64,000 nucleotides of DNA. It comes from an uncultured Anaerolineaceae bacterium (GTDB taxonomy: Bacteria; Chloroflexota; Anaerolineae; Anaerolineales; UBA4823). Shown here piece by piece: positions 5,516 through 60,901 of this stretch (position 1 is the first letter of the stretch; each line of letters starts with the position of its first letter). Below the pieces are notes generated by a model. That model was given only the letters and a program-made list of their open reading frames with translations, searched no databases and was not told the origin of the DNA. The stretch lies in assembly GCA_964463505.1 (NCBI GenBank), contig CAYXDC010000003.1, positions 10,657 to 74,656 of the forward strand, written 5' to 3'. A program made the translations under genes and the position numbers.

Positions 5516-5544
5516 TTGCCCTTCAGGAGTGCTCATGCTATAAT
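5516..5544 (+). promoter_or_regulatory. candidate sigma70-type promoter of the Rieske/cytochrome b operon
   Basis: TTGCCC (5516-5521), 17 nt spacer, TATAAT (5539-5544). Lies about 50 nt upstream of the start codon. Confidence 0.4.
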
Positions 5545-5593
5545 TCGGGCGAGGGACAATTGGGATAATTATAATCATTTAAGGAGGATATAT

Positions 5594-6151: not shown

Positions 6152-6205
6152 TTAATCGTTGGGTGGGGATTGTATTTGCATTAATCATTTTTGGGGAGTA
6201 AATCC

Positions 6206-7783: not shown

Positions 7784-7794
7784 CGGCGATTACT

Positions 7795-7831
7795 GCAGGC
7801 AACTGTAGCTGTATTGGCTATAGTTGCCTGC
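7795..7831 (+). other. intra-operon stem-loop after cytochrome b
   Basis: GCAGGCAACT, 17 nt loop, AGTTGCCTGC: a 10-bp perfect stem. Only a weak T tract follows. Confidence 0.35.
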
Positions 7832-7873
7832 TTGTTATACAATATAGCCTGGTATGGGAGGGCTTGAACCATT

Positions 7874-8716: not shown

Positions 8717-8730
8717 GAGGGAATGGATTG

Positions 8731-13408: not shown

Positions 13409-14788
13409 ATGAAAGTTAGCCATCTTCGCATTGCCGGAGCGAGTCTCCTGATTGTTGGCTTATTGTTATTGTGGACCGGAACTCGCAAATCGCTAACCTT
13501 GATTCTCAACGGAGAAAGTAAATCTTTTACCACGCATGCACTGCGGGTGATAGATTTGCTTACTCAGTTGGGATTTGAACCGCATCCGGTGGACCGGATT
13601 TCTTTAGACCTAAAAACCTGGTTAGTGAATAAAGATGTTTTACAACTTGAACAGGCTGCCGTAGTCGTCATATATGTAGATGGTAACCTGAGCCAGTTGA
13701 CCAGTCCTATACGGGTCCCAGCGAATCTGCTTGGTTTGGCCCAGGTGCGTTTATACCCTGGTGATCGTGTGCTGGTAAATGGGCTAAATGCTGATCCGGC
13801 TATTGCACTGGATTACTCGGAAATTTACCGTATACAGGTCCTCAGAGCTGTACAGGCGCGTTTTCATGATCAATCTTCATCACAAATATTTTACACCTCC
13901 GCGCCAACAGTTGCGCAAGCATTGGCTGAACAGGGACAGGCAATTTACGCTACAGATTGGATAAATGGTGGATTTGATGCGCCGCCCAAAAATGATCTCG
14001 AGACTGAGTATCAATCTGCGCAAAAACTTGAGGTACACGCTAAAGCTGGTTTGATAGAATTCTACAGCGCGGCTGCTTCGATCGGAGCAGCCCTGGCAGA
14101 GCGGGGGATTGCCCTTCAAAGCCTGGATTACACGCAGCCTGCTACGGAAGAACCTTTGCCAGAAGATGGGGTTATCCGCCTGATGCGCGTGAGCGAGCAG
14201 GTGGTTATTGAGCAGGAGCCCATTGCCTATGAATCCGAACTCCAACCGGCGCCCGATGTTGAGCTTGACCAGCGCATCACACTACAGGCAGGAGAGTATG
14301 GACTTTTAGCCCGCCGGGTGCGTATCCGGACGGAGGATGGAGAGGAGGTATCGCGCAAGGCTGAAGCAGAATGGGTAGCCCAGCCAGTTAAGAACCGCAT
14401 TGTGGGATATGGCACCAAAGTGGTGGTGAAAACATTAAGTACTCCAGATGGTCCGATTGAATATTGGCGTTCCGTTTCAATGTATGCGACATCCTATTCG
14501 CCTTGCCGCATCTTTGATGATCGCTGTGATTCGTATACTGCGAGTGGGGCGGAGCTTAAAAAAGGCATTGTGGCGGTGCGAGGTTATTGGTACCGTTATT
14601 ATGGCGGCACGCAGGTATATGTACCCGGTTATGGTGTAGGCCTGGTCGCAGATGTGGGTGGGGGGATTCCGGGTCGCTTTTGGATCGATCTCGGATATAG
14701 TGATAGCGATTATATCTCCTGGCATCAAGATGTCACTGTATATTTTCTAACCCCGGTGCCGGACCAGATCATGTATATCGTCCAGTAA
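13409..14788 (+). CDS. DUF348 / G5 / 3D-domain cell-wall protein (YabE/RpfB-like architecture)
   Basis: N-terminal TM and repeated DUF348-like segments. G5-like region (RITLQAGEYGLLARRVRIRTEDGEEVSR..VGYGTK). C-terminal 3D domain (YATSYSP..TASGAELKKGIVAV..VPGYGVGLVADVGGGI..WIDLGY). Confidence 0.8.
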   Translation: MKVSHLRIAGASLLIVGLLLLWTGTRKSLTLILNGESKSFTTHALRVIDLLTQLGFEPHPVDRISLDLKTWLVNKDVLQLEQAAVVVIYVDGNLSQLTSPIRVPANLLGLAQVRLYPGDRVLVNGLNADPAIALDYSEIYRIQVLRAVQARFHDQSSSQIFYTSAPTVAQALAEQGQAIYATDWINGGFDAPPKNDLETEYQSAQKLEVHAKAGLIEFYSAAASIGAALAERGIALQSLDYTQPATEEPLPEDGVIRLMRVSEQVVIEQEPIAYESELQPAPDVELDQRITLQAGEYGLLARRVRIRTEDGEEVSRKAEAEWVAQPVKNRIVGYGTKVVVKTLSTPDGPIEYWRSVSMYATSYSPCRIFDDRCDSYTASGAELKKGIVAVRGYWYRYYGGTQVYVPGYGVGLVADVGGGIPGRFWIDLGYSDSDYISWHQDVTVYFLTPVPDQIMYIVQ

Positions 14789-14803
14789 ACCGGTCAATCT
14801 TGC

Positions 14804-16174
14804 ATGCCTCCAGCCTCTGAGCCGTCATCAAACCTCAAACCGGTAGCCTCCTCCAACCAGGCTTCCCCTGCAACTGGTAATCATAAACGCATGCGGGCTG
14901 GCATAGCGTTGCTGGTCGGTCGTGGGGCGCGGGATGGCTATCTGGCAGCTCTGGATCAGGGTGTGATCAGCCTGGCAAACTTTTTAGCCACACTGATCCT
15001 GGCGCGGGTTGTCTCACCGACAGAGTTGGGGGTATATGGGGTAGGGTTTACATCCTTACGCTTGATTCGCTCGTTTCAAGAAGGCTTAACAATCCAACCG
15101 GTCAACACGTTTGGCGCAGGACTGGATGAAGCAAGTTTCCGCCGCTATGCCAGCAACACCAGTCTGATCCAGTTAGGCTTAGCTGTCTTATCCGCACTAG
15201 GAGCGGCAGTTCTGGGCTGGATCTTGATCATAACGGGAAACGATACCGCCGGGCCAGCTGTGCTGGGACTTTGGTTTCCTTTCTTAACCTGGCAGATCCA
15301 GGAATACCTGCGCCGGTTGCTCTACACGCGCGGCGAAATTTTCAATGCAGTTGTTAATACCTTGCTCGCCAATAGCGTGCGGATCGGGTTGATGATCTGG
15401 TGGATGGGAGGAGGTATGCTGGATGGCATCAGTGGATTGACCGCCATCGCCTGGGGATCGTTGGTAGCGATGCTGCCTGGCATCTGGTTGACTCGCCGTT
15501 ATTGGTCACCTTCTGTGCGTGGTTTGGGTCAGACCTGGCGCCAAAATTGGGAGTTCGGGCGTTGGGTATTGGGAAGCCAGCTTGCCAATTGGGTGGCAGT
15601 CGAATTTTATCCTGTGTTGACTGCGGGGATGATCAACTTTGCCGCTGCGGGAGCTTACCGTGCCCTGCAAAATCTGGTCGCTCCTATTCATTTACTATTG
15701 CGCGCAACCGATACCTTTCTGACCCCGCGGGCGGCTCGGGTCTTTAGCAATCATGGTTGGAAGCCGCTGGCGCGCACCATTCGCCTGACTTATATCTTAT
15801 CTGGAATTCCGATCGCTGGTATTCTGGCCCTGGCAAGCATCTTCCGCAGGCCTCTCCTGGAGCTGCTGTATGGGTCTGCCTATGTAGAATACGCCGATGG
15901 CCTACTTCTGATGGCCCTGTTTTACCTCTTGTGGTTTGCCTATTCGCCTTTGCAAACGGCATTCAAGGCAACCCGCACCAGCCGGCCGATTTTTGTCGCC
16001 AATGCCGGCGCAATCCTGGCAATGTTTACTTTGGGGATTTGGATGATCCAGAATTGGGGAGTGTATGGAACGATTGCTGGGCAGGGATTGAATTCTCTGA
16101 TTGTTGCGGTCATTTTATGGTGGAGCTGGATCAGACTCTGGCGTAAGAATGGCCAGTACCAGACGCAGACTTGA
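14804..16174 (+). CDS. polysaccharide flippase (Wzx/MOP superfamily-like) membrane protein
   Basis: 456 aa with about 12-14 TM helices. Sits in a polysaccharide-gene context. Assignment rests on topology and context only. Confidence 0.65.
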   Translation: MPPASEPSSNLKPVASSNQASPATGNHKRMRAGIALLVGRGARDGYLAALDQGVISLANFLATLILARVVSPTELGVYGVGFTSLRLIRSFQEGLTIQPVNTFGAGLDEASFRRYASNTSLIQLGLAVLSALGAAVLGWILIITGNDTAGPAVLGLWFPFLTWQIQEYLRRLLYTRGEIFNAVVNTLLANSVRIGLMIWWMGGGMLDGISGLTAIAWGSLVAMLPGIWLTRRYWSPSVRGLGQTWRQNWEFGRWVLGSQLANWVAVEFYPVLTAGMINFAAAGAYRALQNLVAPIHLLLRATDTFLTPRAARVFSNHGWKPLARTIRLTYILSGIPIAGILALASIFRRPLLELLYGSAYVEYADGLLLMALFYLLWFAYSPLQTAFKATRTSRPIFVANAGAILAMFTLGIWMIQNWGVYGTIAGQGLNSLIVAVILWWSWIRLWRKNGQYQTQT

Positions 16175-38161: not shown

Positions 38162-38548
38162 TTATCCAGCCAGCTCTTGGTTGGCTTGAATGGCAAGCTC
38201 GACTGCCTGGATGAGATCTGTAAACGAAACTGGTTTGGTGAGATAACTGGTGGCGCCTGCCCGCAGGCCTGCCTGGATATCCGCCGGCATATTTTTGGCA
38301 GACACAATCACGATAGGGATATTTGCCAGACTATGGTCTTGGTGGATTTGCTCCATTACTTCCAGCCCCGAGATATCTGGCATCATTAAATCCAGCAGAA
38401 TAACATCCGGCTGTTTTTCGGCTATCAGGCTGAGCGCGACGGTGCCAGCGAAGGCATTATGCGCCAAATAGCCGCGCAAGCGTAACATCTCGGCGAACAT
38501 TTCCCCTGTATCGCGTTCATCTTCAACAATGACGATATTTTTCTGCAA
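38162..38548 (-). CDS. stand-alone CheY-like response regulator receiver
   Basis: 128 aa with VIVEDERD, phospho-acceptor context VILLDLMMPDISG, and YLTKP. TTG start. Confidence 0.85.
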   Translation of the reverse strand: MQKNIVIVEDERDTGEMFAEMLRLRGYLAHNAFAGTVALSLIAEKQPDVILLDLMMPDISGLEVMEQIHQDHSLANIPIVIVSAKNMPADIQAGLRAGATSYLTKPVSFTDLIQAVELAIQANQELAG

Positions 38549-38580: not shown

Positions 38581-38608
38581 ATCATACAACATTTTCAGCG
38601 CTTGTCAA
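38581..38608 (-). promoter_or_regulatory. candidate sigma70 promoter for the CheY-like/thpR/rsfS unit
   Basis: The minus strand reads TTGACA (38608-38603), 16 nt spacer, TATGAT (38586-38581). Confidence 0.5.
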
Positions 38609-38639: not shown

Positions 38640-39269
38640 CTAGCCAGTAAAATCTGGTCGCTCGCGATCATAATCAGCTGGAGTATCCAGGTCTTTAAGA
38701 ATACTCGGGGTCGTGACAGTTAAGTAATGGATTTGATCCCTATGCTGGTTCAAGAAATCTCGCAGAGTGGCCGGAGCATCTAAAGCGAACACATTGGGCC
38801 AAATTGTACGGCTTACCAGCCAGGGATGCCCGCGCCGGTTGTTAAAACTGGGTATGATTAATGGTGAGCCTGTCTCCTGATAAGCCTCAGCCAGGGCGCG
38901 TACGGTATCGACCTCAATTTGCGGCTGGTCACCCAGCGCCACCAGCGTTGCCTGGATGTTTTCGTGGTGCTTGCCAAGCCCAACTTGCAGAGAACGCAGC
39001 ATGTCGTTACCTGTGTATTGCGGATTGAAGATGGTTTGCACTGGCAAATGCTGCAAGGCAGTTTCCACATCAGTATAGCTGCCACCGGTGACCACGATAA
39101 CCTCTGCCAGCCCAGCCTCGAGCAATACTTCTGCCACCCTGGCAATGACTGTGGTTTGCCCCCAGGGGAGCACCATCTTGGGTTGGCCCATGCGGCGAGA
39201 TTGGCCGGCAGCCAGGACAACCGCGCCAATTCTTTTGGGAGTTATGGGTTGGGAATAGAGTGAACTCAC
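38640..39269 (-). CDS. mocA: MobA-like NTP transferase, probable molybdenum cofactor cytidylyltransferase
   Basis: AVVLAAGQSRRMGQPKMVLPW signature and LGDQP motif. Sits in a Moco-hydroxylase maturation context. Confidence 0.72.
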   Translation of the reverse strand: MSSLYSQPITPKRIGAVVLAAGQSRRMGQPKMVLPWGQTTVIARVAEVLLEAGLAEVIVVTGGSYTDVETALQHLPVQTIFNPQYTGNDMLRSLQVGLGKHHENIQATLVALGDQPQIEVDTVRALAEAYQETGSPLIIPSFNNRRGHPWLVSRTIWPNVFALDAPATLRDFLNQHRDQIHYLTVTTPSILKDLDTPADYDRERPDFTG

Positions 39270-39280
39270 TGTCTTTTCCC

Positions 39281-40618
39281 TTACAGGCGCTCCAGATCCG
39301 CTGGTGTATCGATATCCAGGCCGGCTGAGGCGTCATGCCAGGGAAGCCACTGCACCGGGTAGCGGCTGAAAATAGCTCTGCCGCCGATATCGCCCTGTAA
39401 CTGGCTCAGATCCTTAAAGGTGACGCGATCAAAAAGAACCGGGTTGCCGCGCTGGCCATCAATCAAAGGACCGGTGATGGGCTTGAAGGTGTAGGAATGA
39501 GATTCAACAAGTCTGGAAATCAACGCCATGGGTACTTGTGGCTGGTCGGCCAATAAAAAGACCGCCGCTCCCGCACGGACAGGCAGAGATTGCACCCCTT
39601 TAGCGACTGAAGTTCCCTGGCCTGCTTCCCAATGTGGGTTGAACACACATTTCACAGGTAAATCTGTTACAGCTTTTTCAACCTCCTTCGAATATGCGCC
39701 GGTAATCACCAGCACGGGAGCTAATCCTGCTTGCACAGCGGTGCGCGCAGCGCGATGCACCAGTGTCTCTCCTTGCCAGTGGATGAGTTGTTTGGGCTGG
39801 CCGAAGCGACTGGCGCTACCAGCGGCCAGGACGATCCCCGCAACAGTCTCAATGACTGCATGAATGGCAGGCTCGCCTCGAGCGGGTAAGAGGCTGCTAA
39901 TAATGACGGCTTCGTAAGCCCCCAGAAGATTATCAGCCATGCGCCGTGCCACAGCCTGTAGCTCAGGAGAATCGGCTTGATTCAGTAAGACCATGCGTCT
40001 CGCAGAAGGGGGAATATTTTTCAGTCCACCGGATGGGTGGTTCAGCACCTTCGTGATGGTCTGATAGGTAATCGAGTCGCCATCCGCCAGGCCAGATAGC
40101 TGTGCATAGATTTCGGGGCGGTGGACGGAATCAGGTCCGAAGGATTTGCCTGTCGCAGACAGACCTGCGCATACCAGTACCTGGTTCACCCAGCCTGGGA
40201 TAGATGGCTCTTGCTCGGCAGGAGCTTTCAATGGTAGCAGACGGGCGCCATCAGCCTCCACCAGCACAGGCCAACCACGCGCCTCTGCCAGGCGAAATAT
40301 TGCTTCCAGGGTTTCTGTACTCGGGCCTGAAATGCGCCCGGCGTTAATGCTTGTGCCGGTAAATAAAACTACCCCGGCAGGGCGTTGTAGGGCGAATTGA
40401 GCAACTTCATCTGGAGACTGGACCCGAAAGTGGGAATCTGCCTGAGCACATTGCTCCACAGCCAGGTGAGTGGTTGTGGTAAGCAGGACCGGCCCAGCCA
40501 GCGGATTGCACTGCTTGAGAGCGTTGGCGATGGCGAACATGGCGCTGGTTTTGCCGCCTGCCCCTACGATTGCCAGCCGGGCGGTGTTATCTAAACGCAG
40601 GGCCTGTGCCAGGTTCAT
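39281..40618 (-). CDS. yqeC: fusion of a YqeC-like accessory domain (selenium-dependent hydroxylase maturation) with a second MocA-like nucleotidyltransferase domain
   Basis: N-terminal LAIVGAGGKTSAMFAIA P-loop-like start with ..EADGAR..LKAP and ..VLLNQAD, typical of YqeC as I recall. The C-terminal half has IVLAAGSASRFGQPKQLIHW and LLADQP. Confidence 0.68.
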   Translation of the reverse strand: MNLAQALRLDNTARLAIVGAGGKTSAMFAIANALKQCNPLAGPVLLTTTTHLAVEQCAQADSHFRVQSPDEVAQFALQRPAGVVLFTGTSINAGRISGPSTETLEAIFRLAEARGWPVLVEADGARLLPLKAPAEQEPSIPGWVNQVLVCAGLSATGKSFGPDSVHRPEIYAQLSGLADGDSITYQTITKVLNHPSGGLKNIPPSARRMVLLNQADSPELQAVARRMADNLLGAYEAVIISSLLPARGEPAIHAVIETVAGIVLAAGSASRFGQPKQLIHWQGETLVHRAARTAVQAGLAPVLVITGAYSKEVEKAVTDLPVKCVFNPHWEAGQGTSVAKGVQSLPVRAGAAVFLLADQPQVPMALISRLVESHSYTFKPITGPLIDGQRGNPVLFDRVTFKDLSQLQGDIGGRAIFSRYPVQWLPWHDASAGLDIDTPADLERL

Positions 40619-40619
40619 A

Positions 40620-41456
40620 TCAGCCCCATAACATTTGACGGATATCTGGGCGGCTCAGGATGGCTTCCAAAACTCCACCGCCTATCGCCAGAGCTTTTTC
40701 GGAAACATACAGGGCATGACGAGGATCGCAGCGTGGATCCAAATCACCAATTTTCATACCCGCCTGCACGAAAACACCTGCATGCATAATCCCGCGCAGC
40801 AATCCACGAAATGGGGCGCAGAGCATCGCATTGCCCACCTGAGCGATAGGCTGCCCGGCTTCAATAATTGTTCCAATTTCTGCATAGGCATTCAGGATAC
40901 CTGCCCTGGGGGCACGTAGTACTCGCTCGGCCTGATGGGTGGTCTGAACTGCGGACTCTCTGGCGGCAACCCCTTCGGGGATACCTGTATCCGGCTGCGC
41001 TGTCCCATTCCAAATAACCCGTCCTAAAAAGTGCCCGCGATTAGTTTCAATAACCGCATGACAATTTTCCCCGGCATGGAAACCTGGTCCCAAACCGATT
41101 ACGAGTGGGGCGGCTTCGCGCCCAATTTCCGGGGAATGCTTCATCATACGTGCATCGATCAACACTGCCGGGGGTAATTTATGGCGGATATCACAGCTCG
41201 GATCGCAGAGTACAGGGATTTCGTGGGCCTGTAAGATAGACTGGACTTCTTCCAGCGTATTTGCTCGCCGTGCAGTTGCTTCCTCAACTTTTACCAGGCC
41301 TGTATACATCGCCTCAGCAAACGCTACTGTCCGGCGCACTGCTAACGGTTGCGGAATTTCGGTGATGATGGACTGCAGCCCCGCGCGCAAGCAGCGCAGG
41401 GCAACCCCTGAGGCCAGGTCGCCGCCTCCACGTAGGATCAAGGTTGCTGGAGTCAT
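40620..41456 (-). CDS. yqeB: YqeB-family (short, EF2563-type) selenium-dependent molybdenum hydroxylase system protein
   Basis: LILRGGGDLASGVALRCLRAGL..PQPLAVRRTVAFAEAMYTG..VEE pattern, recalled from the YqeB C-terminal domain. 1-nt gap to the yqeC-like gene. Confidence 0.65.
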   Translation of the reverse strand: MTPATLILRGGGDLASGVALRCLRAGLQSIITEIPQPLAVRRTVAFAEAMYTGLVKVEEATARRANTLEEVQSILQAHEIPVLCDPSCDIRHKLPPAVLIDARMMKHSPEIGREAAPLVIGLGPGFHAGENCHAVIETNRGHFLGRVIWNGTAQPDTGIPEGVAARESAVQTTHQAERVLRAPRAGILNAYAEIGTIIEAGQPIAQVGNAMLCAPFRGLLRGIMHAGVFVQAGMKIGDLDPRCDPRHALYVSEKALAIGGGVLEAILSRPDIRQMLWG

Positions 41457-41475
41457 ATCTGTGTGATTGATTGTT

Positions 41476-43707
41476 CTAGATGCGTCCTAATGCCTTCAAG
41501 ATGCGCTCAGGAGTCAAGGGAAACTCATGCATCCAGACCCCGGTGGCATCGTGGACTGCGGCAATCACAGCTGGAGCCAGGGGCATAAAGGGCATTTCAG
41601 CCATGCCGCGCGCTCCCCAGGGCCCACGCGGGTCGGCGAGTTCGAGAATCTGGCTTTGCACACAATCTGGCACATCCAGCACGGTAGGAATCAAGTAAGT
41701 GGAGAGGTGCTGTGTTTGCACATAACCATCTTTCTGGACAAAATTTTCCAGAATTGCATACCCGGCAGCCTGAACCACGGCGCCTTCAATTTGCCCCTGG
41801 ATCTGTTGGGGGTTAATGGCTTTGCCGACATCATTTGTCGATACCACGTCTTTCAAATGCACGTGACCGGTTTCAGTATCCACTTCCACCAGGACAGCTT
41901 GGGCAACATATCCGTAAGAAAAATTGGGCTCGCACTTGCCGGTTTCAGGAGCAAAAGGTGTGGTGGCAGGCGGGCGATATTGATAAGTACCAACGGCTGG
42001 ACGATCTTCAGCCTGCCAGCGTTCCAGGGCCAGGTTGGCCGCGCCGCGGATGGCATTGCCCGCCATAAAAGTCATACGAGAAGCTGAGACGCTGCCGGAA
42101 TTCTTGCTTGTGGCGGTGTCGGAGGCGATCAAGACAACCTTTTCCAGCGGCACGCCAACGGCATCCGCGGTCATCTGGCAAAAGGCGGTATGGGAACCCT
42201 GCCCGACCTCGGCACCGGCGTGCTTAAGAATCACCTTTTCGATATCTGTTTTACCGTATAGCTCGATAATCGCCCAGCAGTTTTCAGGCGCTCCGAAGGA
42301 AAAGCCCACGTTCTTATAGGCGCAAGCAAACCCAACGCCGCGCTTCAGATGAGGTTCGCTGGGTGAAAGATCAAACAAACCGTTTTTAGTTGCCGGGCGT
42401 GTCCAGCCTGCCGGCAACACCTCTTGCCACCCGCTGGTGCGGGCGCATTCTGCTACAACTTCCGGCAGACTGACTCCTTTGGGCAGCGGTGTACCGACGG
42501 ATAGTAGGGAACCTTCGCGCAGTACATTACGCAGACGGATCTCTACCGGGTCCATAGCGAGTTTTTCGGCCAGGCGGTTCATTTGCGTTTCGGCTGCAAA
42601 CGCTCCCTGTGGTCCGCCAAAGCCGCGGAAAGCTCCGCCTGGGATATGATTGGTATATACCGCATACGAGTCAACCTTCACATTGGGGATCTCATAAGGC
42701 CCCGTGCACATGAGTGTCGCATTTCCCAATACTTTCGTCGACGTATAGGCATATGCCCCGCCATCGGCGATGACTTCGACCTCGGCAGCGATAACCTTGC
42801 CAGCCCTGGTAGCTCCCCAGCGAGTTTTCACGATATAAGGGTGGCGTTTGTGATGCCCAATGATTGACTCTTCCCGACTCCAGATGATCTTAACCGGGCG
42901 GTCAATGCCTCTTTGGTGCAGCCGGTAAGTTGCCAGACCTAGCACAATCTGAACCGACATATCTTCGCGCCCACCGAAGGCGCCGCCAATCGCGGGATAA
43001 ATGACGCGTACCTGCTCCAGGGGCAAGCCCAGGGAATGAGCTATTTGTTCCTGGTCTTCATGGGTCCACTGGCCTGCAACCTCAACGGTCACCCGCCCTT
43101 GCTCATCCATATAGCTGATCCCGGCTTCAGGCTGCAGGTAAGCATGTTCCTGCGCGGGGGTGTGATACTCACCTTCCACAATGACATCTGCCTGAGCAAA
43201 GGCTGCCTCAGAATCGCCGCTGCGAATGCGGTAATGACAAAATACGTTTGAATCGCGGTCTGGGTGTAGGAGCACGGCTTCTGGCTGGCGGGCCTGGAGC
43301 AAGTCTGTCACCACTGGCAGTTCATCGTAATCCACTTTGATTAAATCACGCGCCTGAGCGGCAATCTCTTCAGTATCCGCGATGACCAGAGCTATTTGGT
43401 CACCCACAAAACGCACCCGCTCGGCAAAGGGTTTGGTAGAGCCCGGTCCGCACAGCACCGGCTGATCAGGCATGATCAGACCATATTCATTTACGGGCAC
43501 ATCTTTAGCCGTAAGAACTGCCAACACGCCTGGTAATGCTTCAGCCGTTGACGTGTCGATGTGGTGGATGATGGCATGCGGGCGATTGGCGAACAGGATT
43601 TTCATATGGGCCTGGTCAGGCCTGTTGATATCTCCAGGGTAATGAGCCTGACCTGTTACTTTGCTATAGGCATCTACGCGCTGGACAGATTGACCGATCG
43701 AGGACAT
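41476..43707 (-). CDS. xanthine dehydrogenase-family molybdopterin-binding large subunit
   Basis: 743 aa. Motifs GQAHYPGD, GGAFGGRED, GGAFRGFGGPQG and E..GQ.EG (QIEGAVVQAAGY), typical of the aldehyde oxidase/XDH a/b-hammerhead plus Moco domains. Confidence 0.9.
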   Translation of the reverse strand: MSSIGQSVQRVDAYSKVTGQAHYPGDINRPDQAHMKILFANRPHAIIHHIDTSTAEALPGVLAVLTAKDVPVNEYGLIMPDQPVLCGPGSTKPFAERVRFVGDQIALVIADTEEIAAQARDLIKVDYDELPVVTDLLQARQPEAVLLHPDRDSNVFCHYRIRSGDSEAAFAQADVIVEGEYHTPAQEHAYLQPEAGISYMDEQGRVTVEVAGQWTHEDQEQIAHSLGLPLEQVRVIYPAIGGAFGGREDMSVQIVLGLATYRLHQRGIDRPVKIIWSREESIIGHHKRHPYIVKTRWGATRAGKVIAAEVEVIADGGAYAYTSTKVLGNATLMCTGPYEIPNVKVDSYAVYTNHIPGGAFRGFGGPQGAFAAETQMNRLAEKLAMDPVEIRLRNVLREGSLLSVGTPLPKGVSLPEVVAECARTSGWQEVLPAGWTRPATKNGLFDLSPSEPHLKRGVGFACAYKNVGFSFGAPENCWAIIELYGKTDIEKVILKHAGAEVGQGSHTAFCQMTADAVGVPLEKVVLIASDTATSKNSGSVSASRMTFMAGNAIRGAANLALERWQAEDRPAVGTYQYRPPATTPFAPETGKCEPNFSYGYVAQAVLVEVDTETGHVHLKDVVSTNDVGKAINPQQIQGQIEGAVVQAAGYAILENFVQKDGYVQTQHLSTYLIPTVLDVPDCVQSQILELADPRGPWGARGMAEMPFMPLAPAVIAAVHDATGVWMHEFPLTPERILKALGRI

Positions 43708-43966: not shown

Positions 43967-44692
43967 ATGCAGCTTTATTTCATCCGCCATGGTCAATCCA
44001 CCAATAACCTGCTTTGGGAACAAACCAGCACCAGCAATGGCCGCAGTATGGACCCGGAATTGACTGATAACGGCTGGCGGCAAGCGCGTCGCCTGGCCAA
44101 GTATTTGCGCGAGAATCAGGGTACCACTCCTACGGATAGCCGCGACTCACACAATGCCTATGGCTTTGGATTAACCCATCTATACAGCAGCCTGATGGTC
44201 CGAGCAGTTGCGACCGGCAGCCAGGTCACCCGCGCTTTGAATTTGCCCCTGGTGGGCTGGCTGGATTTACATGAAGAAGGCGGAATTTATTTGAATGATC
44301 CACAATCCGGAGAACCGGTAGGGTATCCTGGGAAAACCCAGGCTTATTTTGCTTCACACTACCCGGAGTTAGTCTTGCAGGATGGTGTCGCCAAAGAAGG
44401 GTGGTGGAATCGCCCATTAGAAACATCTTCAGAAAGCGCGGCGCGTGCCCGACGCTTTTTGGATGAGCTGCTGCGCAAACATGGCAATACCACGGATAGG
44501 GTGGCGGTCTTTAGCCATGGTGGATTTTACAATGCCTTCATGCGCCAGGTCCTGGGATTGCCGGGTGAGACGCGCAAGATTTGGTTCCAGATCAATAACA
44601 CAGCCATTACCCGCCTGGATTTCAGTGAGGGAGAAGTCATTGCAGTGTATCTAAATCGGGTCGATTTTCTGCCCGCAGACTTGATTACATAA
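43967..44692 (+). CDS. histidine phosphatase family protein (phosphoglycerate mutase-like)
   Basis: N-terminal LYFIRHGQSTNN (RHG catalytic motif) and C-terminal VFSHGGF. Confidence 0.85.
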   Translation: MQLYFIRHGQSTNNLLWEQTSTSNGRSMDPELTDNGWRQARRLAKYLRENQGTTPTDSRDSHNAYGFGLTHLYSSLMVRAVATGSQVTRALNLPLVGWLDLHEEGGIYLNDPQSGEPVGYPGKTQAYFASHYPELVLQDGVAKEGWWNRPLETSSESAARARRFLDELLRKHGNTTDRVAVFSHGGFYNAFMRQVLGLPGETRKIWFQINNTAITRLDFSEGEVIAVYLNRVDFLPADLIT

Positions 44693-45602
44693 CCTTTTTA
44701 CGGGAAAAAGCCGGACTTTCTGCCAGGTATACACCCACCAAGATCAAACCTCCGCCGCTGATTAGAGCAGGGTGGATATGCTCCCCGACCAAGATTGCAG
44801 CAGCGATCACCGCGATGACCGGCTCAATGTTCTGGATCGCAGCCAGAGACGATGCTGGGGCGCGCTGGAGGGCTCGGGTATAGATCAGGTGCGCAATCCC
44901 GGTGCATAATATTCCAATTACAAGTAAATTTAGCCAGGTTATGAGTGGGAGGTGGGCCAGCTCCAACCATCCATCTTGTTGGATCCATAAGGGTAAACAG
45001 AACAAGACCCCTACCAACATCATCACACTGGCAGTGATGATCGCAGGGCGATTGGATCCCACAATCCGGTTCAAAATCGAGTAGACTGCCCAGATCACTG
45101 CCGATGCCAGAACCAGCAGACTGCCTTGCGTCACGAGCTCCCCACCGTTGAACCAATTGGACACCCCATTGGTTGAAACCACCGCTGCACCCGTTGTTGC
45201 CAGCAAGACGCCGCTGCTTTGAAGCAAGTTGAGGCGTTCTCTCAGGAAAACTGCTCCCAACAAGACGATAAAAACAGGTGCTGTGGACGCCAGGAAGGCT
45301 GCTGCGCCCGCTGCAGATGTAACCTGACCATTGACTTGTAAGAGCTGATGCAGCGTGACCCCGACGAACCCCAGCAGAGTCATGGCAGGTAAGTCCTTCC
45401 AGTGCAGGCTGCTCCAGAGCTTTTGCTGGCCAGCAACTAAGAAAAGAAGCGCGCCACCCAAACCGAACCGCACTACAATCAAGGTAAGCGGGGAAACATC
45501 TTGTAACGCTAATTTGATCAAGGGGAAAGATATCGCCCACAAGGCGATGGCGATTGCGGTTTCGATCTGAGCCAGGCGATTGGTTGGGTTCGCCAATTTC
45601 AC
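44685..45602 (-). CDS. DMT/EamA family transporter
   Basis: 10-TM protein with two EamA-like halves. Start moved to GTG 45602 behind GGTGAGG, which removes the 26-nt overlap with the TetR gene. Confidence 0.8.
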   Translation of the reverse strand: MKLANPTNRLAQIETAIAIALWAISFPLIKLALQDVSPLTLIVVRFGLGGALLFLVAGQQKLWSSLHWKDLPAMTLLGFVGVTLHQLLQVNGQVTSAAGAAAFLASTAPVFIVLLGAVFLRERLNLLQSSGVLLATTGAAVVSTNGVSNWFNGGELVTQGSLLVLASAVIWAVYSILNRIVGSNRPAIITASVMMLVGVLFCLPLWIQQDGWLELAHLPLITWLNLLVIGILCTGIAHLIYTRALQRAPASSLAAIQNIEPVIAVIAAAILVGEHIHPALISGGGLILVGVYLAESPAFSRKKVM

Positions 45603-45615
45603 TTTATTACCAGCC

Positions 45616-46221
45616 TCACCTGGAACTCTGTGCCAGGCCATCCAGATAAATCAATACCAGATGATCGATTACTTCAGCAGGTGGGGGTAATTCAGTCGCA
45701 TGGGCTGGAAAGAAGTAGGGATACATCATTCCCAGTAGCGACCAGGTTGCCAGGGCAGGATTGAGCGGACGCAGTTCGCCCTTCTGGATTCCCTGCTCGA
45801 TAACTGACTGGATTTTCCCGATGAATTTTTCGTGGTAGTCGCGGTGAAAATTTTTCCTGGCTGGGGAGCTGATCTGAGCCATCTCCTGGCTGGCAAGGCG
45901 AATCGCCGCGCGTTGGTCCTGTGGCCAGGCCAGAATCGTGTGTACCAGGGCCTGGATCTGTTCCCGGCTGGTGGTTTGTCCCTCGACAGCCGCGTCGATC
46001 AGAACTTCAATTTCATTGAGTAGCTCGTTTAATACCGCCAGAAATAGTTCTTCTTTATCTTGAAAATGATAGTAAAGAGCGGCTTTTGAGACCCCCACCG
46101 CCCGTGCCAATACGCTCATTGACAGGCCACGATAGCCTTGTTCAATGAATAAGGCGCGGGCGGTGGTCAGGATCTCCTGGCGCATGTGTTTTGGTTCACC
46201 ATTCGATCCTTGCAGTGTCAT
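45616..46221 (-). CDS. TetR/AcrR family transcriptional regulator
   Basis: N-terminal HTH ARALFIEQGYRGLSMSVLARAVGVSKAALYYHFQDKEELF. Confidence 0.9.
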   Translation of the reverse strand: MTLQGSNGEPKHMRQEILTTARALFIEQGYRGLSMSVLARAVGVSKAALYYHFQDKEELFLAVLNELLNEIEVLIDAAVEGQTTSREQIQALVHTILAWPQDQRAAIRLASQEMAQISSPARKNFHRDYHEKFIGKIQSVIEQGIQKGELRPLNPALATWSLLGMMYPYFFPAHATELPPPAEVIDHLVLIYLDGLAQSSR

Positions 46222-46233
46222 ACAAGTTTTCCC

Positions 46234-46692
46234 TTAACCAAAACTTGGGAAGAGTGGTCGAGCCCAGGGCATGCCCATCAGGATCACCAACAATGCCAGA
46301 CCGAGCCAAATGGCGGCCAAACGATGTTTTTTATTCGGTTTATCAGCTTTGCGAGGCAGGATAGTGCCCAGGTGCGCAAAAACGACTGCCAGCAGCATAA
46401 AGACAGCGTGTTCAACGGCGAAAAAGCGTATCTCACTCTGACCCATGACGGTGCCCATATCAAAATTTTGGAAAGCCTTTAAGCCTACCGGACTAAAAGC
46501 CAGATAAAGCACTAAACCAACGAGGAGCTGTATATCCACGGACATCGCAAAGAATGAGCCAATCTTACGATCCGCTGGGATCCAGGCCTGCTTGCCAAAC
46601 CAGCCGATGAATGCTCGCAGAACGGCCAGGGCGCCCAGGATGACCACCACCCAGCGCAGAATATTATGAATAGCCAAAATCGTATCGTACAT
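46234..46692 (-). CDS. hypothetical 4-TM membrane protein
   Basis: 152 aa, first gene of the membrane-protein/TetR/EamA unit. No motif recognised. Confidence 0.55.
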   Translation of the reverse strand: MYDTILAIHNILRWVVVILGALAVLRAFIGWFGKQAWIPADRKIGSFFAMSVDIQLLVGLVLYLAFSPVGLKAFQNFDMGTVMGQSEIRFFAVEHAVFMLLAVVFAHLGTILPRKADKPNKKHRLAAIWLGLALLVILMGMPWARPLFPSFG

Positions 46693-46725
46693 AGGAAAAC
46701 CTCCGGAAGAATTATTTAGAATTCG

Positions 46726-46751
46726 GCTTACTTACCGACCGGTCAGTAAGC
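46726..46751. promoter_or_regulatory. imperfect palindrome, candidate TetR operator
   Basis: GCTTACT-tacc-GACCGGTC-AGTAAGC, in the divergent region between the TetR unit and the aminotransferase gene. Confidence 0.3.
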
Positions 46752-46925
46752 AGTGCAATCTTACCAGAATTATCCTGAAAAGTCCATTAACATTGGCTAA
46801 ATTTCCTTGTTTTACGTTATCCTATCCAGTCGTTAAATCTACTGCATGGTTATCCCGAAGCCGGGTTTTATGTTACGATTCAGTCAAGTACACACCACAA
46901 ATTCATCTAAAAAAGGGAAAAGCAT

Positions 46926-48275
46926 ATGTCTGAGATATCCAATGAGGAAATTCTATCGCTTTCATTGGAGCACGGTTTCTGGACCTGGTCGGCGCAAGGC
47001 AAGGTCGCACCTATCCCTGTGGAACGCGCCGAGGGGGTCTATTTTTGGGATATAAACGGGAAACGCTATCTCGATTTCAATTCAATGGTGATGTGCGTAA
47101 ACATTGGGCATGGCAACCAGCATGTGATCAATGCGATCATTGAGCAAGCGCGTGCTTTGCCCTTTGCCGGTCCGCCCATGGCAACCCGCCCGCGCGCCAG
47201 GCTGGGCAAATTGCTGTCCGAGATCACGCCCGGCAACCTGGACCGATTTCTATTTACCCTGGGAGGCGCAGATGCCAATGAAAATGCAGTTAAGCTGGCG
47301 CGTGCTTTCACTGGCAAACATAAAATTCTAACTCGTTACCGGTCTTATCATGGCGCTACTGCCGGAGCGATGGCCCTTACTGGTGACCCGCGCCGCCTGG
47401 TGTGGGAGCCAAATCTGATGCCGGGGGTGGTGCATTTCCTCGATCCCTATCGCTACCGGTCCACCTTCCACCGCAATCGCCCGGAAGTTTCGGAGGCAGA
47501 ATTTACCCAGGATTATCTGGCCCATCTGGAAGAAATCATCACTTATGAAGGACCACATACTATAGCTGCCATTTTGATGGAAACCGTGACCGGCACCAAT
47601 GGGATCATCATCCCACCCCAGGGTTATATGCAGGGTGTACGCGAATTGTGTGACCGTTACGGCATTCTGATGATTGCTGATGAAGTGATGAGCGGTTTTG
47701 GTCGCACGGGGAAGTGGTTTGCCATCCAGCATTGGGATGTGACCCCCGATCTGATGACGATGGCCAAAGGATTGACATCCGCCTATGCTCCACTGGGGGC
47801 GGTAGCTATGCGTCCGGAGATTGCTGAATTCTTTAATGAGCGTGTCTATCAAGGTGGTTTGACATACAACTCACACCCGATCTCGCTCGCAGCAGCAGCC
47901 GCCAATATTGAAGTCTTGCGAGATGAGCATTTGGTGGAACACGCCGCAGCGCTTGCGCCGGCGCTTAAGCGCATGCTGACCGATTTAGGCGAGCAACATC
48001 CCTCTGTAGGTGATGTGCGCTCGATTGGTCTGTTTGGGATCATCGAGCTGGTCAAAAACCGGGCTACACGTGAGCCACTCGCCCCATTCAATGGCTCCAG
48101 CCCGGAGATGGTCAGTATTCGCAAATCTCTCCTGGAGCATGGTTTATATATCAGCCCGCACTGGCACACATTGCTGATAATTCCCCCTTTGATTATTACC
48201 GAAGAACAGCTGGCAGAAGGGATGGGGATGATTGATGAAGCGCTGGAGATTGCCGACCGAGTGGTAACCGGTTAA
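46926..48275 (+). CDS. class-III (omega) aminotransferase, PLP-dependent
   Basis: 449 aa with SYHG, LIADEV.SGFGRTGKWF (Lys for PLP) and MAKGLTS motifs. Substrate cannot be read from the sequence. Confidence 0.88.
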   Translation: MSEISNEEILSLSLEHGFWTWSAQGKVAPIPVERAEGVYFWDINGKRYLDFNSMVMCVNIGHGNQHVINAIIEQARALPFAGPPMATRPRARLGKLLSEITPGNLDRFLFTLGGADANENAVKLARAFTGKHKILTRYRSYHGATAGAMALTGDPRRLVWEPNLMPGVVHFLDPYRYRSTFHRNRPEVSEAEFTQDYLAHLEEIITYEGPHTIAAILMETVTGTNGIIIPPQGYMQGVRELCDRYGILMIADEVMSGFGRTGKWFAIQHWDVTPDLMTMAKGLTSAYAPLGAVAMRPEIAEFFNERVYQGGLTYNSHPISLAAAAANIEVLRDEHLVEHAAALAPALKRMLTDLGEQHPSVGDVRSIGLFGIIELVKNRATREPLAPFNGSSPEMVSIRKSLLEHGLYISPHWHTLLIIPPLIITEEQLAEGMGMIDEALEIADRVVTG

Positions 48276-49999
48276 TTCGGGGTGCGTTGCAGACGTTCTT
48301 TTTCTGCTTTGAATATGCGGTTTAGAATGGCGATACTGGCGGCATACGTGGCATCCATACCTGCATAAGAAAGGCTGCGTGCGCCTAGGTTTTTCCCTTT
48401 GCTCAGTGGGGTGTCTGAAGCGTAGTGAATAACGCCAAGATCGAACCCCAGCCCATACAGGTTGACAATTTCGTTGACCGGATGGCGCTGGGGTCGATAC
48501 ATTTCATAGACTGCCGATAAATACGGGCCAGCTTCCATCTCGATATCCGTATATCCTTCCCGGTAAAACACATCCATATAGCGGGCATTTTGCAGAAATG
48601 TACCTTGCACCGTGACAGCTTTCTGGTTGTCCAGGACTGTTCCAATAGAAATAAAGGGCGTCACATCGCCGGCGCTGATGCAATTGGCGAAAAGAAATGT
48701 ATTGTGCGAATGTTCGTCATGCACCACATTCGGGATCATCACATCGCCTACAACGCCATTCAGGGTGGCAGCTTTACCCATTACATACACTCCCAGGACG
48801 GAACCTACTGTTTCGGCTATTTCACTCAGGATTTGATATGCCCCCAATCCAAGTGGGTAGTCCACGTTCAGGATTAAAGCCTGGCTGTTGCGAAACAAAC
48901 CGCGCGCCTCAGGTGTGGCCGCGAGGTGCAGACGAGGATCTAACTGGGCGCACTCCAGGCGGCTAAGGTCCACAACCTGCGCTTCAACATCGAAGAAATT
49001 TTCGCTGGGGATACGCAGGATGCCGCAATCTCGCTCGCGGAGATTCTGCTCCTGAACCTGTTTTTGCCCATCTGCCGTTTGCTGGTATTTTTTCTGGACA
49101 TAATATAGAAAGTTCTGCGGATCGGTGTTCGAGTGCCCCGATTGAATATCCTGCCATTCATTGAGCAAGCCTTTATTGCCTGAGAGCTCCAGATAGCTCA
49201 ATAATTGCTCTTGAATGGAAACTGCCTGGGCGGTGATTAAGTTCAATAGGCTATGCGTATTGCTCGAGACAAAATAAACTGGCCTTTCCCGCAAGCCTGG
49301 GACAGCTCTGACAATTTGATCCCACCAGGCACGCGTGGCGCGGCGGTATTCTGTTAAAGAGCTGCTGAGCAGGCGCACGCGTAAATCGCGTGGATTCTGT
49401 TGAATTTTTTCCAGATTACTCGCAAAGGCCTCATCCCAAATGACCGAAAGCCGGTCGAGATCTTCTTCGGGGATATCCAGGGCATCCAATACCGTTTGGT
49501 AACCATCTGCTGTCCGGCAGAGTTCGGCTACATGCGCCTGCGCAGGCAAGCGCTGCAGGCGTTGGTGAATTTTATTCCACTCTAATTGGTACGCGATCAG
49601 GATGGGGATCAGGTCGTCTATGTCCGAGCGGCTGGAGATCACGCAAGCCAGAATTTCATTGCCATCATAATAGTAGCGTCGCCTGCGTGCGGCAGCACCT
49701 ACAGGTTGCCATTCCTGTACATTCCCAAAGCCGGTGGCGTTAAAGACAGCTTTGCCCTGGCCCATGACGACCAGGCGTGTATCTGCAATCTCTGGAGGCA
49801 GGCGCAGCAGTCCGTAGATAAAGGCCGACATATCCGGTTCGGGAGCGCGCGCTGCAGGATGGAGCAGGGAATTCATCCCGGCGTGAACTTCTTCCAGGGT
49901 GCGTATTCGCACCTCGCCCGTTGAACGCAGCAACGAATAATAGGTGCGTTGGTAGAGATCAATGCTTTCCGATTCGGTCGTCGGTACAGTACGTTCCAT
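48272..49999 (-). CDS. two-part protein: unrecognised N-terminal region (about 370 aa) plus AMP-nucleosidase/PNP-UDP-phosphorylase-like C-terminal domain
   Basis: The C-terminal LILNVDYPLG..VYVMGKAATLNGVVGDVMIP..DIEMEAGPYL..YASDTPLSKGKNL parallels E. coli Amn (LVNIGVGPSN..MIGHCGGL..GDYVL..AIDMESATIA..CVSDKPLHGE, from memory). Confidence 0.6.
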   Translation of the reverse strand: MERTVPTTESESIDLYQRTYYSLLRSTGEVRIRTLEEVHAGMNSLLHPAARAPEPDMSAFIYGLLRLPPEIADTRLVVMGQGKAVFNATGFGNVQEWQPVGAAARRRRYYYDGNEILACVISSRSDIDDLIPILIAYQLEWNKIHQRLQRLPAQAHVAELCRTADGYQTVLDALDIPEEDLDRLSVIWDEAFASNLEKIQQNPRDLRVRLLSSSLTEYRRATRAWWDQIVRAVPGLRERPVYFVSSNTHSLLNLITAQAVSIQEQLLSYLELSGNKGLLNEWQDIQSGHSNTDPQNFLYYVQKKYQQTADGQKQVQEQNLRERDCGILRIPSENFFDVEAQVVDLSRLECAQLDPRLHLAATPEARGLFRNSQALILNVDYPLGLGAYQILSEIAETVGSVLGVYVMGKAATLNGVVGDVMIPNVVHDEHSHNTFLFANCISAGDVTPFISIGTVLDNQKAVTVQGTFLQNARYMDVFYREGYTDIEMEAGPYLSAVYEMYRPQRHPVNEIVNLYGLGFDLGVIHYASDTPLSKGKNLGARSLSYAGMDATYAASIAILNRIFKAEKERLQRTPN

Positions 50000-50017
50000 A
50001 AATAGGTCTGTAGAATC

Positions 50018-50431
50018 TTAGCGGTGTCTGCCGGTGCGTTGTTGGGGACGGCTCTGGGGGCGCGAGCGGATTGGTTTAGCATCCAGTGGACCCAGGGGAT
50101 CGGGATTCACCAGCCGGTAGAAAATGGCATAGAGGAAGCTGAGTAAAGCAAAGCCAATAAAGGAAAGCAATATGGTGACGATTAAGGTTGCCACCAGATG
50201 ATCTACCACTCCCAAAAAGGGTAGCGTAATAGATTGCATTAGCTCAGCCGGCATGGGGACCCACCGCTTTTCGATATTTGCCTGGATTAGCAAGATTGCC
50301 CCAGCATATGCCATAATCGGGATCAGTAGCATCAGAATGCAGCCGATGCCGCGCCAGACTGGGTGAATCGTCCACGGACGTTGATCCAGGGGTGTGCGGC
50401 GGTTAAAAGAAGAATATTTAGCCATGACCAA
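50018..50431 (-). CDS. hypothetical small membrane protein (2 TM, basic C-tail)
   Basis: Start overlaps the stop of the FAD/2Fe-2S gene by 14 nt (8 nt if ATG 50425 is used). The next gene begins 18 nt after its stop. Confidence 0.5.
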   Translation of the reverse strand: MVMAKYSSFNRRTPLDQRPWTIHPVWRGIGCILMLLIPIMAYAGAILLIQANIEKRWVPMPAELMQSITLPFLGVVDHLVATLIVTILLSFIGFALLSFLYAIFYRLVNPDPLGPLDAKPIRSRPQSRPQQRTGRHR

Positions 50432-60133: not shown

Positions 60134-60901
60134 TCAGTTGCCCAGGCGATGCATGATACGCTCAACCAGGATGGTTGCTGTGGCTGTGCGGTATTCGGCC
60201 GACGCCCACTCATCCGAAGCCATACTGTAAGCGAATTGCACTGCCTCGGCTGCGCCACCAGGCTCCGGGCCATCCATAGCCAGACGTGGGAGCTTTCCGA
60301 AGCCTATGAGTGTGATCCGTGTGCGCCCTGAAGGCCAGCTTGCCACGGCTACACCAACAATCGGCCAATCTGCAGGAGTGCGTGCTACCATTTCCAGGTC
60401 CAGGCTTACATGGCTTGGGATGGTAACCTGCGTAATTAAGCGTTTTGCCAATTTTGTCTGGCGCAGAGGTAAGAGCTCGCCTAATGCAATGCCTTCACCT
60501 GCCTGATCGGATGCAGAGACAATGGTCAGTTGCGCATCCAGGGCCAACATGGCTGCAGCAAAAGGTGACCGCCCATCGCAGGCAACCAGCGTGCCTGCCA
60601 CAGTGCCGGCCTGGCGCAGGTTATAGCTTGTTTCGCGTTGGATTGCGGTGCGTAAGGCTGAGGGTAGCTCCACTAATTCGCCCATTGCCTGTAGAGTCAG
60701 GGTCGCTCCAAGGACTATCTGGTTCCCTCGTTGCTCAACATGGTTCAGGTTCAGAGCCTGTAAGTCGACCACTCCCACCGGCTCAGGTCCCAGGCTGTGT
60801 AGTGCGGTTCCTCCCCCGGCAGGCGCCATCCGCTTATCGCTGCGGGAGAGTAAATTTAATGCCTCGTCAAGAGTTTGAGGGCGATAATATGCAGTAATCA
60901 T
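60134..60901 (-). CDS. xanthine dehydrogenase-family FAD-binding subunit (CoxM/YgfM-like)
   Basis: 255 aa with YYRPQTLDEALNLL, PAGGGTAL, VVDLQALNL and AGTVAGTL. Confidence 0.82.
   Translation of the reverse strand: MITAYYRPQTLDEALNLLSRSDKRMAPAGGGTALHSLGPEPVGVVDLQALNLNHVEQRGNQIVLGATLTLQAMGELVELPSALRTAIQRETSYNLRQAGTVAGTLVACDGRSPFAAAMLALDAQLTIVSASDQAGEGIALGELLPLRQTKLAKRLITQVTIPSHVSLDLEMVARTPADWPIVGVAVASWPSGRTRITLIGFGKLPRLAMDGPEPGGAAEAVQFAYSMASDEWASAEYRTATATILVERIMHRLGN

Follow-up and report, generated by a model that had tools for sequence, protein, structure and literature searches.

By accepted practice, the selenium (Se)-cofactor trait is recognised from SelD, YqeB, and YqeC occurring together, and a 2024 study of Clostridioides difficile (PMC11448449) described what YqeB and YqeC do biochemically as undefined. 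The YqeB model TIGR03309, named for a selenium-dependent molybdenum cofactor biosynthesis protein, is limited to selD-positive genomes, and its cutoff separates the SelD-linked subfamily (PMC2276186). Natural fusions of these proteins were recorded by Zhang et al. 2008 (PMC2432076): YqeC (HP2) and a COG2068 MobA-related protein form a single fusion gene in Moorella thermoacetica (Table 1 of that paper; 2089404-2090771, about 455 aa), and YqeB (HP1) is fused to a MobA-related protein in Carboxydothermus, Dorea, and Ruminococcus and to XdhC in Escherichia coli and Haloarcula. Anaerolinea thermophila UNI-1 and Caldilinea aerophila are both SelD+, SelA+, SelB+, YqeB+, and YqeC+ (Peng et al. 2016, Table S1, PMC5029168). 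Here, a cassette of four genes is described, located at 38640..43707 on the minus strand of a 64-kb stretch of DNA (hereafter the window; contig CAYXDC010000003.1 of assembly GCA_964463505.1) from an uncultured Anaerolineae bacterium. The cassette encodes a molybdenum cofactor (Moco)-binding large subunit of the xanthine dehydrogenase (XDH) family (Moco743), a stand-alone YqeB, a YqeC::MocA1 fusion protein, and a second MocA-like protein (MocA2).

The cassette is an ordinary copy of the known YqeB/YqeC-type Moco maturation set. Its four genes probably constitute the distal end of an Anaerolineae cluster for two XDH-family molybdenum hydroxylases and their cofactor maturation proteins, with the maturation route set out below; this reading, in which selenium enters the cofactor, is held with moderate confidence.

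The ancestral cluster and the YqeC::MocA fusion

In the open reading frame (ORF) listing, the four co-directional ORFs of the cassette are separated by gaps of 19, 1, and 11 nt, and this close spacing suggests, at the level of sequence, one transcription unit. The listing agrees exactly with an earlier reading of the stretch made from its letters alone (the sequence-only reading), which had described four minus-strand genes 1-19 nt apart, and all the sequence patterns quoted there are present.

A genome scan returned at least 580 loci encoding relatives of the fusion protein, none closer than 52% identity, so that the source species is not represented in the loci used, and the best 80 all belong to Chloroflexota/Anaerolineae, among them the cultured Thermanaerothrix solaris, a Longilinea metagenome-assembled genome (MAG), and Candidatus Villigracilis. 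The window proteins were mapped onto a set of 87 related loci (1.5 Mb), in which one co-directional cluster is found, with the order FAD255 - FeSMoco1012 - (DHH) - XdhC - FADFeS483 - Moco743 - YqeB - YqeC::MocA1 - MocA2. The full cluster is carried by L019, L021, L022, L024, L044, L045, L061, L068, and L080 (Thermanaerothrix solaris). The sequence-only reading had linked the cassette with an XdhD-like and a YgfM-like gene elsewhere in the window, and the synteny of the relatives bears this out as one ancestral cluster; three related genes absent from that reading, encoding the FAD-FeS fusion, XdhC, and the DHH-CBS pyrophosphatase-like protein, belong to it as well. XdhC is conserved within the cluster in the relatives, and the DHH-CBS pyrophosphatase-like gene lies inside it, beside XdhC, in at least seven of them (L019, L022, L024, L044, L055, L068, and L074).

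The window contains every gene of the cluster, but with two interruptions. The first is a gene for an M16 peptidase, situated between FAD255 and the FeS-Moco gene; it was apparently inserted into the ancestral operon, because in L021, L045, L061, and L080 FAD255 is the immediate upstream neighbour of the FeS-Moco gene. The second, at 43967..50431, comprises genes for a DUF6909 protein, a class-III aminotransferase, a TetR regulator, an EamA transporter, and a histidine phosphatase. In most relatives, the FAD-FeS gene is located directly upstream of the Moco743 orthologue, and this synteny makes the FAD-FeS protein the likely partner of Moco743. The accessory set (XdhC, YqeB, YqeC::MocA, the second MocA, and the pyrophosphatase) and two XDH-family enzymes thus occur as one cluster in hundreds of environmental Anaerolineae genomes, and the selenium dependence could be tested in the cultured Thermanaerothrix solaris, which has the cluster.

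The YqeC::MocA fusion is genuine, and Anaerolineae carry it as a rule. In the window, its YqeC half scores 167.9 bits on TIGR03172 (cutoff 73.05; residues 15-231) and 116.2 bits on Pfam YqeC (PF19842; cutoff 27.6; residues 16-169), with 32% identity to E. coli YqeC, and its MocA1 half scores 117 bits on NTP_transf_3 (cutoff 27; fusion residues 261-420), as the sequence-only reading had anticipated for a 445-aa YqeC-MocA protein. The protein could in principle be an artefact, whether of a frameshift, of faulty assembly, or of two neighbouring genes mis-called as one by read-through, and this explanation was rejected as exceedingly improbable. Four independent metagenome contigs of different sample origin encode the identical fusion protein; a relative with 88% identity has the same fusion ORF in identical synteny on a 990-kb ENA contig, ERZ27249388 k141_167663; and one uninterrupted ORF of 429-489 aa is present throughout (87/87 related loci; 80/80 genome loci). 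Furthermore, the AlphaFold2 (AF2) model of the fusion (pLDDT 93.4, pTM 0.91) is confident across the junction, which would fit a fixed two-domain arrangement.

The sequence-only reading had asked how widely the fusion is spread and had valued it as a compact and useful handle. The first point is answered by a standard architecture: besides the related loci, both Pfam domains are present in 120/120 of the best database hits of the fusion, and a MocA-like domain was found, when domain content was scored with local hidden Markov models, in 122 of the 150 nearest YqeC cluster representatives (one copy in 120 and two copies in 2), the YqeC domain alone having 2388 cluster representatives at E <= 1e-10. 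The second point is overstated in view of these counts and of the 2008 record for Moorella. The fusion is already on record as a common architecture and is not new; Anaerolineales MAG proteins of this kind already bear the NCBI name 'selenium cofactor biosynthesis protein YqeC'. Existing knowledge is therefore left unchanged, as the marker genes, the fusion, and the Anaerolineae trait were all published in 2008-2016, while a clean architectural clue on YqeB and YqeC is of some use. MocA2 has its own gene directly downstream of the fusion in about 58 of the 80 genome loci. Rare YqeC-MocA1-MocA2 triple fusions were also observed (P0017, 646 aa; P0080, 651 aa; P0406, 670 aa; P0449, 628 aa), and they suggest that MocA1 and MocA2 act together rather than serve different enzymes.

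Table 1. Features of the cassette and of the hydroxylase cluster, in window positions
Feature	Position	Strand	Domains or evidence
MocA2, second stand-alone MocA-like nucleotidyltransferase, 209 aa, GTG start	38640..39269	-	NTP_transf_3
YqeC::MocA1 fusion, 445 aa	39281..40618	-	TIGR03172, Pfam YqeC, NTP_transf_3
MocA1 domain, fusion residues about 258-445	39284..39847	-	NTP_transf_3
YqeC domain, fusion residues 1-245	39884..40618	-	TIGR03172 + Pfam YqeC
YqeB, stand-alone domain, 278 aa	40620..41456	-	TIGR03309
Moco743, XDH-family Moco-binding large subunit, 743 aa	41476..43707	-	Ald_Xan_dh_C + MoCoBD_1 + MoCoBD_2
FAD + 2x[2Fe-2S] fusion subunit, 483 aa	50418..51869	-	FAD_binding_5, CO_deh_flav_C, Fer2, Fer2_2
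XdhC-family Moco chaperone, 273 aa	51942..52763	-	XdhC_CoxI + XdhC_C
DHH-CBS-DHHA2 family II pyrophosphatase-like protein, 447 aa	52765..54108	-	DHH, CBS, DHHA2
2Fe2S + Moco fusion, XdhD-like, 1012 aa	54156..57194	-	36.6% identity to E. coli XdhD, full length
M16C/PreP-type peptidase, 967 aa	57203..60106	-	between FAD255 and FeS-Moco genes
FAD-binding subunit, YgfM-like, 255 aa (FAD255)	60134..60901	-	FAD_binding_5; 25% identity to YgfM

Proposed maturation route and possible role of YqeC

By synteny, the cluster would encode two enzymes. Enzyme A would consist of the FAD-FeS protein and Moco743, and enzyme B of FAD255 and the 1012-aa XdhD-like FeS-Moco fusion, for which FAD255 is the inferred partner; the identities in Table 1 agree with the XdhD-like and YgfM-like assignments of the sequence-only reading. 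The best NCBIfam match of Moco743 is pucD (569 bits, under the cutoff of 784), and its nearest solved structures, 4-hydroxybenzoyl-CoA reductase (1rm6), nicotinate dehydrogenase (3hrd), and aldehyde oxidoreductase (1dgj), are about equally distant. Near its C-terminus, the motif GMAEMP is present, which we take to keep the catalytic Glu of the family.

In the first step of the proposed route, the MocA-like domains, both of the LAAG form, would join CMP to Mo-molybdopterin, generating the molybdopterin cytosine dinucleotide (MCD) cofactor and pyrophosphate, as expected from their family membership. MocA2 scores 128 bits on NTP_transf_3 (cutoff 27) and shares 32% identity with MocA1, and the MocA-like sequences share 24-27% identity with E. 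coli MocA. The MocA half of the fusion matches Rv0371c (2we9), 3d5n, and MobA (1e5k) in PDB profile and Foldseek searches, and it contains the motif LAAGSASRFGQPK together with LADQP. In the alignment, VLAAGSASRFGQPK and LADQP in MocA1 correspond to VLAAGQSRRMGQPK and LGDQP in MocA2 and to ITAAGLSSRMGQWK and HGDMP in E. coli MocA, so that the LAAGxSxRxGxPK and DQP motifs are kept in both window proteins. Both paralogues therefore show the CTP-type N-terminal motif (xAAG, which is TAAG in E. coli MocA, as opposed to LAGG in MobA) along with the Mg-binding Dx(P). Neumann and colleagues are said to have reported in 2011 that the AAG form is CTP-type and that the N-terminal motif sets nucleotide specificity.

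In the second step, the clustered DHH-CBS pyrophosphatase-like enzyme may clear the pyrophosphate and could thereby pull the cytidylylation forward; its score on NF011443 (329 bits) is just under the cutoff of 335, and we know of no report of a pyrophosphatase linked with Moco cytidylylation. In the third step, XdhC would bind the cofactor and insert it into the apoenzyme, a function that is established for the XdhC family.

In the fourth step, YqeB, together with XdhC, would install a labile selenium ligand on the molybdenum, derived from the selenophosphate of SelD and replacing the usual sulfido ligand. The proposal draws on comparative genomics and C. difficile genetics, and the cooperation with XdhC is suggested by the fusion of the two proteins in E. 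coli. The 278-aa protein, which the sequence-only reading had assigned to the YqeB type, scores 304.1 bits on TIGR03309, above the curated cutoff of 220, with residues 7-268 covering positions 2-255 of the 256 in the model. E. coli YqeB consists of an XdhC half at the N-terminus and a C-terminal module, and the 278-aa protein corresponds to the latter; the identity with residues 271-524 of the E. coli protein is 44%, including the motif CHAVIETNRGH with its invariant Cys. The AF2 model (pLDDT 91.6) and weak hits suggest a Rossmann-like N-terminal half followed by a biotinyl/lipoyl-like barrel. Foldseek returned no convincing structural neighbour of this model, the best hit being the biotin carboxyl carrier protein domain of pyruvate carboxylase (E 1.7e-3), and hhalign of YqeB against the window XdhC aligned the GxGxxG strand-loop alone.

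In the fifth step, the YqeC module on MocA would most likely act as a P-loop NTPase that couples nucleotide binding or hydrolysis to the hand-over of the dinucleotide cofactor, in a MobB/MobA-like manner. A Walker-A-like GAGGKT(S) is located at residues 19-25, between predicted strand 1 (E14-19) and helix 1 (H23-37), and G19-A-G-G-K-T-S is invariant or nearly so among the 150 cluster representatives. A second conserved motif, hhhEADG (LVEADG here; residues 118-124), follows the predicted strand E118-121. At the Walker-A motif, weak sub-threshold hits were obtained to P-loop NTPases only, namely FlhF, FtsY, SRP54, LpxK, and MurE. The YqeC profile found no solved relative among the PDB sequences, giving only Walker-A-level hits (E 0.4-1); the hhalign comparison with HypB was uninformative, and the Foldseek matches of the whole fusion model were confined to the MocA half.

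From these features, YqeC is proposed, by analogy, to be a P-loop NTPase tethered to MocA and acting as MobB does for MobA, which turns the motifs into a testable hypothesis. Curated bifunctional MobA/MobB families exist in NCBIfam (NF011056 and NF011059), and MobB is described in annotation merely as an 'adaptor'; mobB is reported to be dispensable, and the absent phenotype of a yqeC deletion would fit this. A wider version of the proposal, in which YqeC is the adaptor of the cytidylyltransferase and the counterpart of MobB, rather than an enzyme of selenium chemistry, and in which XdhC, YqeB, YqeC, and one or two MocA proteins form one MCD maturation complex, is tentative and somewhat doubtful. 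If it is true, the subunit contacts could be read from the natural fusions XdhC-YqeB (E. coli), YqeB-MocA (several Firmicutes), YqeC-MocA (the window and Moorella), and YqeC-MocA-MocA2 (rare Chloroflexota), and the confident two-domain model would show the YqeC-MocA interface directly.

Alternatively, YqeC may take part in the selenium chemistry itself, for example in an ATP-dependent activation or transfer, with the MocA fusion merely co-localising consecutive steps. YqeC and YqeB are the two markers published for the Se-cofactor trait, a P-loop would fit a kinase or a ligase (E. coli YqeC has weak Walker-A hits to LpxK, MurE, and FolC), and in C. difficile yqeB alone complemented the double mutant only partly (PMC11448449). 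Against this stand the gene neighbourhoods, as yqeC adjoins mocA and not selD in most organisms of Table 1 in Zhang et al. 2008 (PMC2432076) as well as in E. coli and C. difficile, and the C. difficile genetics, as the single delta-yqeC mutant resembles the wild type, unlike delta-selD and delta-yqeB. A role of YqeC in selenium chemistry is therefore regarded as quite unlikely.

Selenium or sulfur in the hydroxylases

Selenium dependence of both hydroxylases is plausible. In published work, delta-yqeB of C. difficile phenocopies delta-selD on xanthine and urate (PMC11448449), and DOPDH from a selD mutant is inactive when purified (bioRxiv 2025.04.24.650524). The sequence-only reading had made its selenium proposal depend on the YqeB and YqeC models, and both proteins score above the curated cutoffs. 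Selenium-dependent molybdenum hydroxylases are defined by labile selenium, other than selenocysteine, bound at the Mo centre and by an activity that requires SelD and selenium. No sequence signature has been reported that separates selenium-type from sulfur-type enzymes (bioRxiv 2025.04.24.650524).

Several findings weigh against the proposed route. Neither Moco743 nor the 1012-aa protein reaches an equivalog cutoff of a selenium enzyme: Moco743 scores 456 bits on TIGR03311 (Se_dep_XDH; cutoff 830) and the 1012-aa protein 688 bits on TIGR03313 (XdhD type; cutoff 1102). FAD255 is likewise far under the cutoff of TIGR03312 (YgfM type; 56 bits, cutoff 241), and XdhC scores 251 bits on NF045664, under the cutoff of 350. 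For the nucleotidyltransferases, TIGR03310 (MocA/YgfJ) is the closest model to both, but its equivalog cutoff of 186.45 bits is missed by MocA1 (129.1) and MocA2 (153.2), and MocA2 also falls under the cutoff of NF045665 (DVU_1551 family; 157 bits, cutoff 315). Because of the TIGR03310 scores, both are filed by sequence as MocA-like (COG2068-type) proteins, not as TIGR03310 equivalogs; the MobA/MocA calls of the sequence-only reading hold at the level of NTP_transf_3, which both proteins pass. The P-loop assignment of YqeC is drawn from motifs, predicted secondary structure, and sub-threshold hits, and hhalign against E. coli MobB gave a 29-column match at the Walker-A motif with 2% probability. 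The lack of a phenotype in C. difficile delta-yqeC would leave the role of YqeC possibly marginal (PMC11448449).

The distribution of selenium genes points the same way. In the 64-kb window, neither selD (tblastn) nor a sirA-like or cysteine desulfurase/selenocysteine lyase gene (annotation scans) was found, and a tRNA search of the window returned no tRNA gene of any kind and hence no tRNA-Sec. With the E. coli SelD query, tblastn found selD no more than 10 kb from the cassette in just 2/87 loci (L050 and L053). In L050, an Anaerolineales MAG, selD lies 7 kb downstream of the YqeC::MocA cassette at 14398..15468 (+), a closeness that counts in favour of the selenium route. At the active-site position of this selD there is an in-frame TGA (SNCAG*ASKLG), which implies a selenocysteine-containing SelD, and the same in-frame TGA probably accounts for the 316-aa SelD calls, truncated at the N-terminus, that prevail among the database hits.

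These observations bear on a further explanation, in which the cassette matures an ordinary sulfido-type MCD cofactor without selenium, YqeB and YqeC being general helpers of XdhC and MocA, and the correlation with SelD not being causal here. The canonical XdhC of the cluster, a chaperone of sulfurated Moco, fits such a maturation equally well, selD is found neither in the window nor near the cassette in 85/87 related loci, and the silent delta-yqeC mutant fits this explanation as well. Homologues of YqeB or YqeC also occur without a complete selenium trait, so that other roles are possible (Zhang 2008, Peng 2016). In addition, the Rieske/cytochrome b/c complex encoded in the window hints at respiratory metabolism, in an organism with a trait reported mostly from anaerobes. 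On the other side, YqeB scores well above the TIGR03309 cutoff that marks off the SelD-linked subfamily (PMC2276186), and YqeB and YqeC, the published marker, co-occur in the cassette. Moreover, Anaerolinea thermophila and Caldilinea have SelD with YqeB and YqeC, and a protein database search showed SelD sequences to be abundant in Anaerolineales. The sulfido-type explanation is accordingly considered rather unlikely, and the selenium-dependent route is retained as the moderately probable one.

Neighbouring genes and comparison with known systems

Outside the cluster, the genes of the window are for ABC transporters, cell-envelope functions, and a Rieske/cytochrome b/cytochrome c complex. The last is encoded at 5516..9564 (+) by a bc-type complex operon with genes for a Rieske protein, two c-type cytochromes, and a fused cytochrome b (530 aa). 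Downstream of the cassette, a single-domain response regulator (128 aa, TTG start) is encoded at 38162..38548 (-), and a response regulator with 47-63% identity also follows the cassette in about 25 related loci. A near-consensus sigma-70-type promoter for this gene, TTGACA-16-TATGAT, is located at 38581..38608 (-) within the 91-nt gap.

Within the second interruption, the DUF6909 protein (PF21850, 740 bits; 575 aa) is encoded at 48272..49999 (-), and the class-III aminotransferase (NF004718 family, 551 bits; cutoff 472) at 46926..48275 (+). Both genes recur between the FAD-FeS and Moco743 genes in L031, L055, L067, L043, L048, L056, L059, L072, and L074, and they may belong to the substrate pathway of a hydroxylase. 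In the C-terminal part of DUF6909, a '...DIEMEAGPY...' stretch resembles a nucleoside phosphorylase or AMP nucleosidase; a PDB sequence search for a nucleosidase relationship gave no match.

The E. coli/Clostridium purine or 2,8-dioxopurine island was considered as a counterpart of the locus and rejected. With E. coli queries, tblastn gave no hit to SsnA or YgfK in the window and, in the 87 loci, none to SsnA and one partial hit to YgfK (L052); HyuA, YgeW/X/Y, and YqeA types are not among the Pfam/NCBIfam assignments of the window genes, HyuA and YgeW/X/Y having been sought in the annotation and not by sequence search. The order yqeB-yqeC-mocA-...-ygfM-xdhD is seen in NC_000913.3, in agreement with the neighbourhood stated by the sequence-only reading. 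Compared with the E. coli yqeB-yqeC-mocA-ygfK-ssnA-ygfM-xdhD island, the window contains homologues of yqeB, yqeC, mocA, ygfM, and xdhD at 44%, 32%, 24-27%, 25%, and 37% identity, respectively, and an extra three-component-type enzyme composed of the FAD-FeS protein and Moco743.

In the XdhC/PaoD/PucA and MocA/PucB pairs of sulfido-type enzymes (Neumann & Leimkuhler review, PMC2997495), an XdhC-family chaperone gene and a MocA-type cytidylyltransferase gene likewise sit among XDH-family structural genes, with two enzymes sharing the accessory genes, as here. In contrast, those systems are without YqeB and YqeC, and the sulfur ligand is supplied by a cysteine desulfurase.

In the bifunctional MobA/MobB proteins, a MobA-superfamily Moco nucleotidyltransferase is likewise joined to a small Walker-A protein. 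The order is reversed in the fusion described here, with the P-loop domain N-terminal, and the predicted nucleotide is CTP, as opposed to GTP in MobA/MobB. Since homology of YqeC to MobB is not detectable beyond the Walker-A region, the comparison is an analogy for the working mode and does not imply family membership.

The closest likeness is to the Se-cofactor set of selenium-dependent molybdenum hydroxylases (Haft & Self 2008; Zhang et al. 2008), in which the same YqeB, YqeC, and MocA families (TIGR03309, TIGR03172, and TIGR03310) are found beside XDH-family Moco subunits and XdhC. Differences exist in the absence of nearby selD and sirA-like genes (64-kb window), in the two MocA-like paralogues, and in YqeB, a stand-alone protein here but joined to XdhC in E. 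coli and Haloarcula. The organism that carries the set is an environmental member of the Anaerolineae, in contrast to a gut Firmicute or an enterobacterium, and the fused YqeC and MobA-related architecture is that of the Moorella thermoacetica (F) entry.

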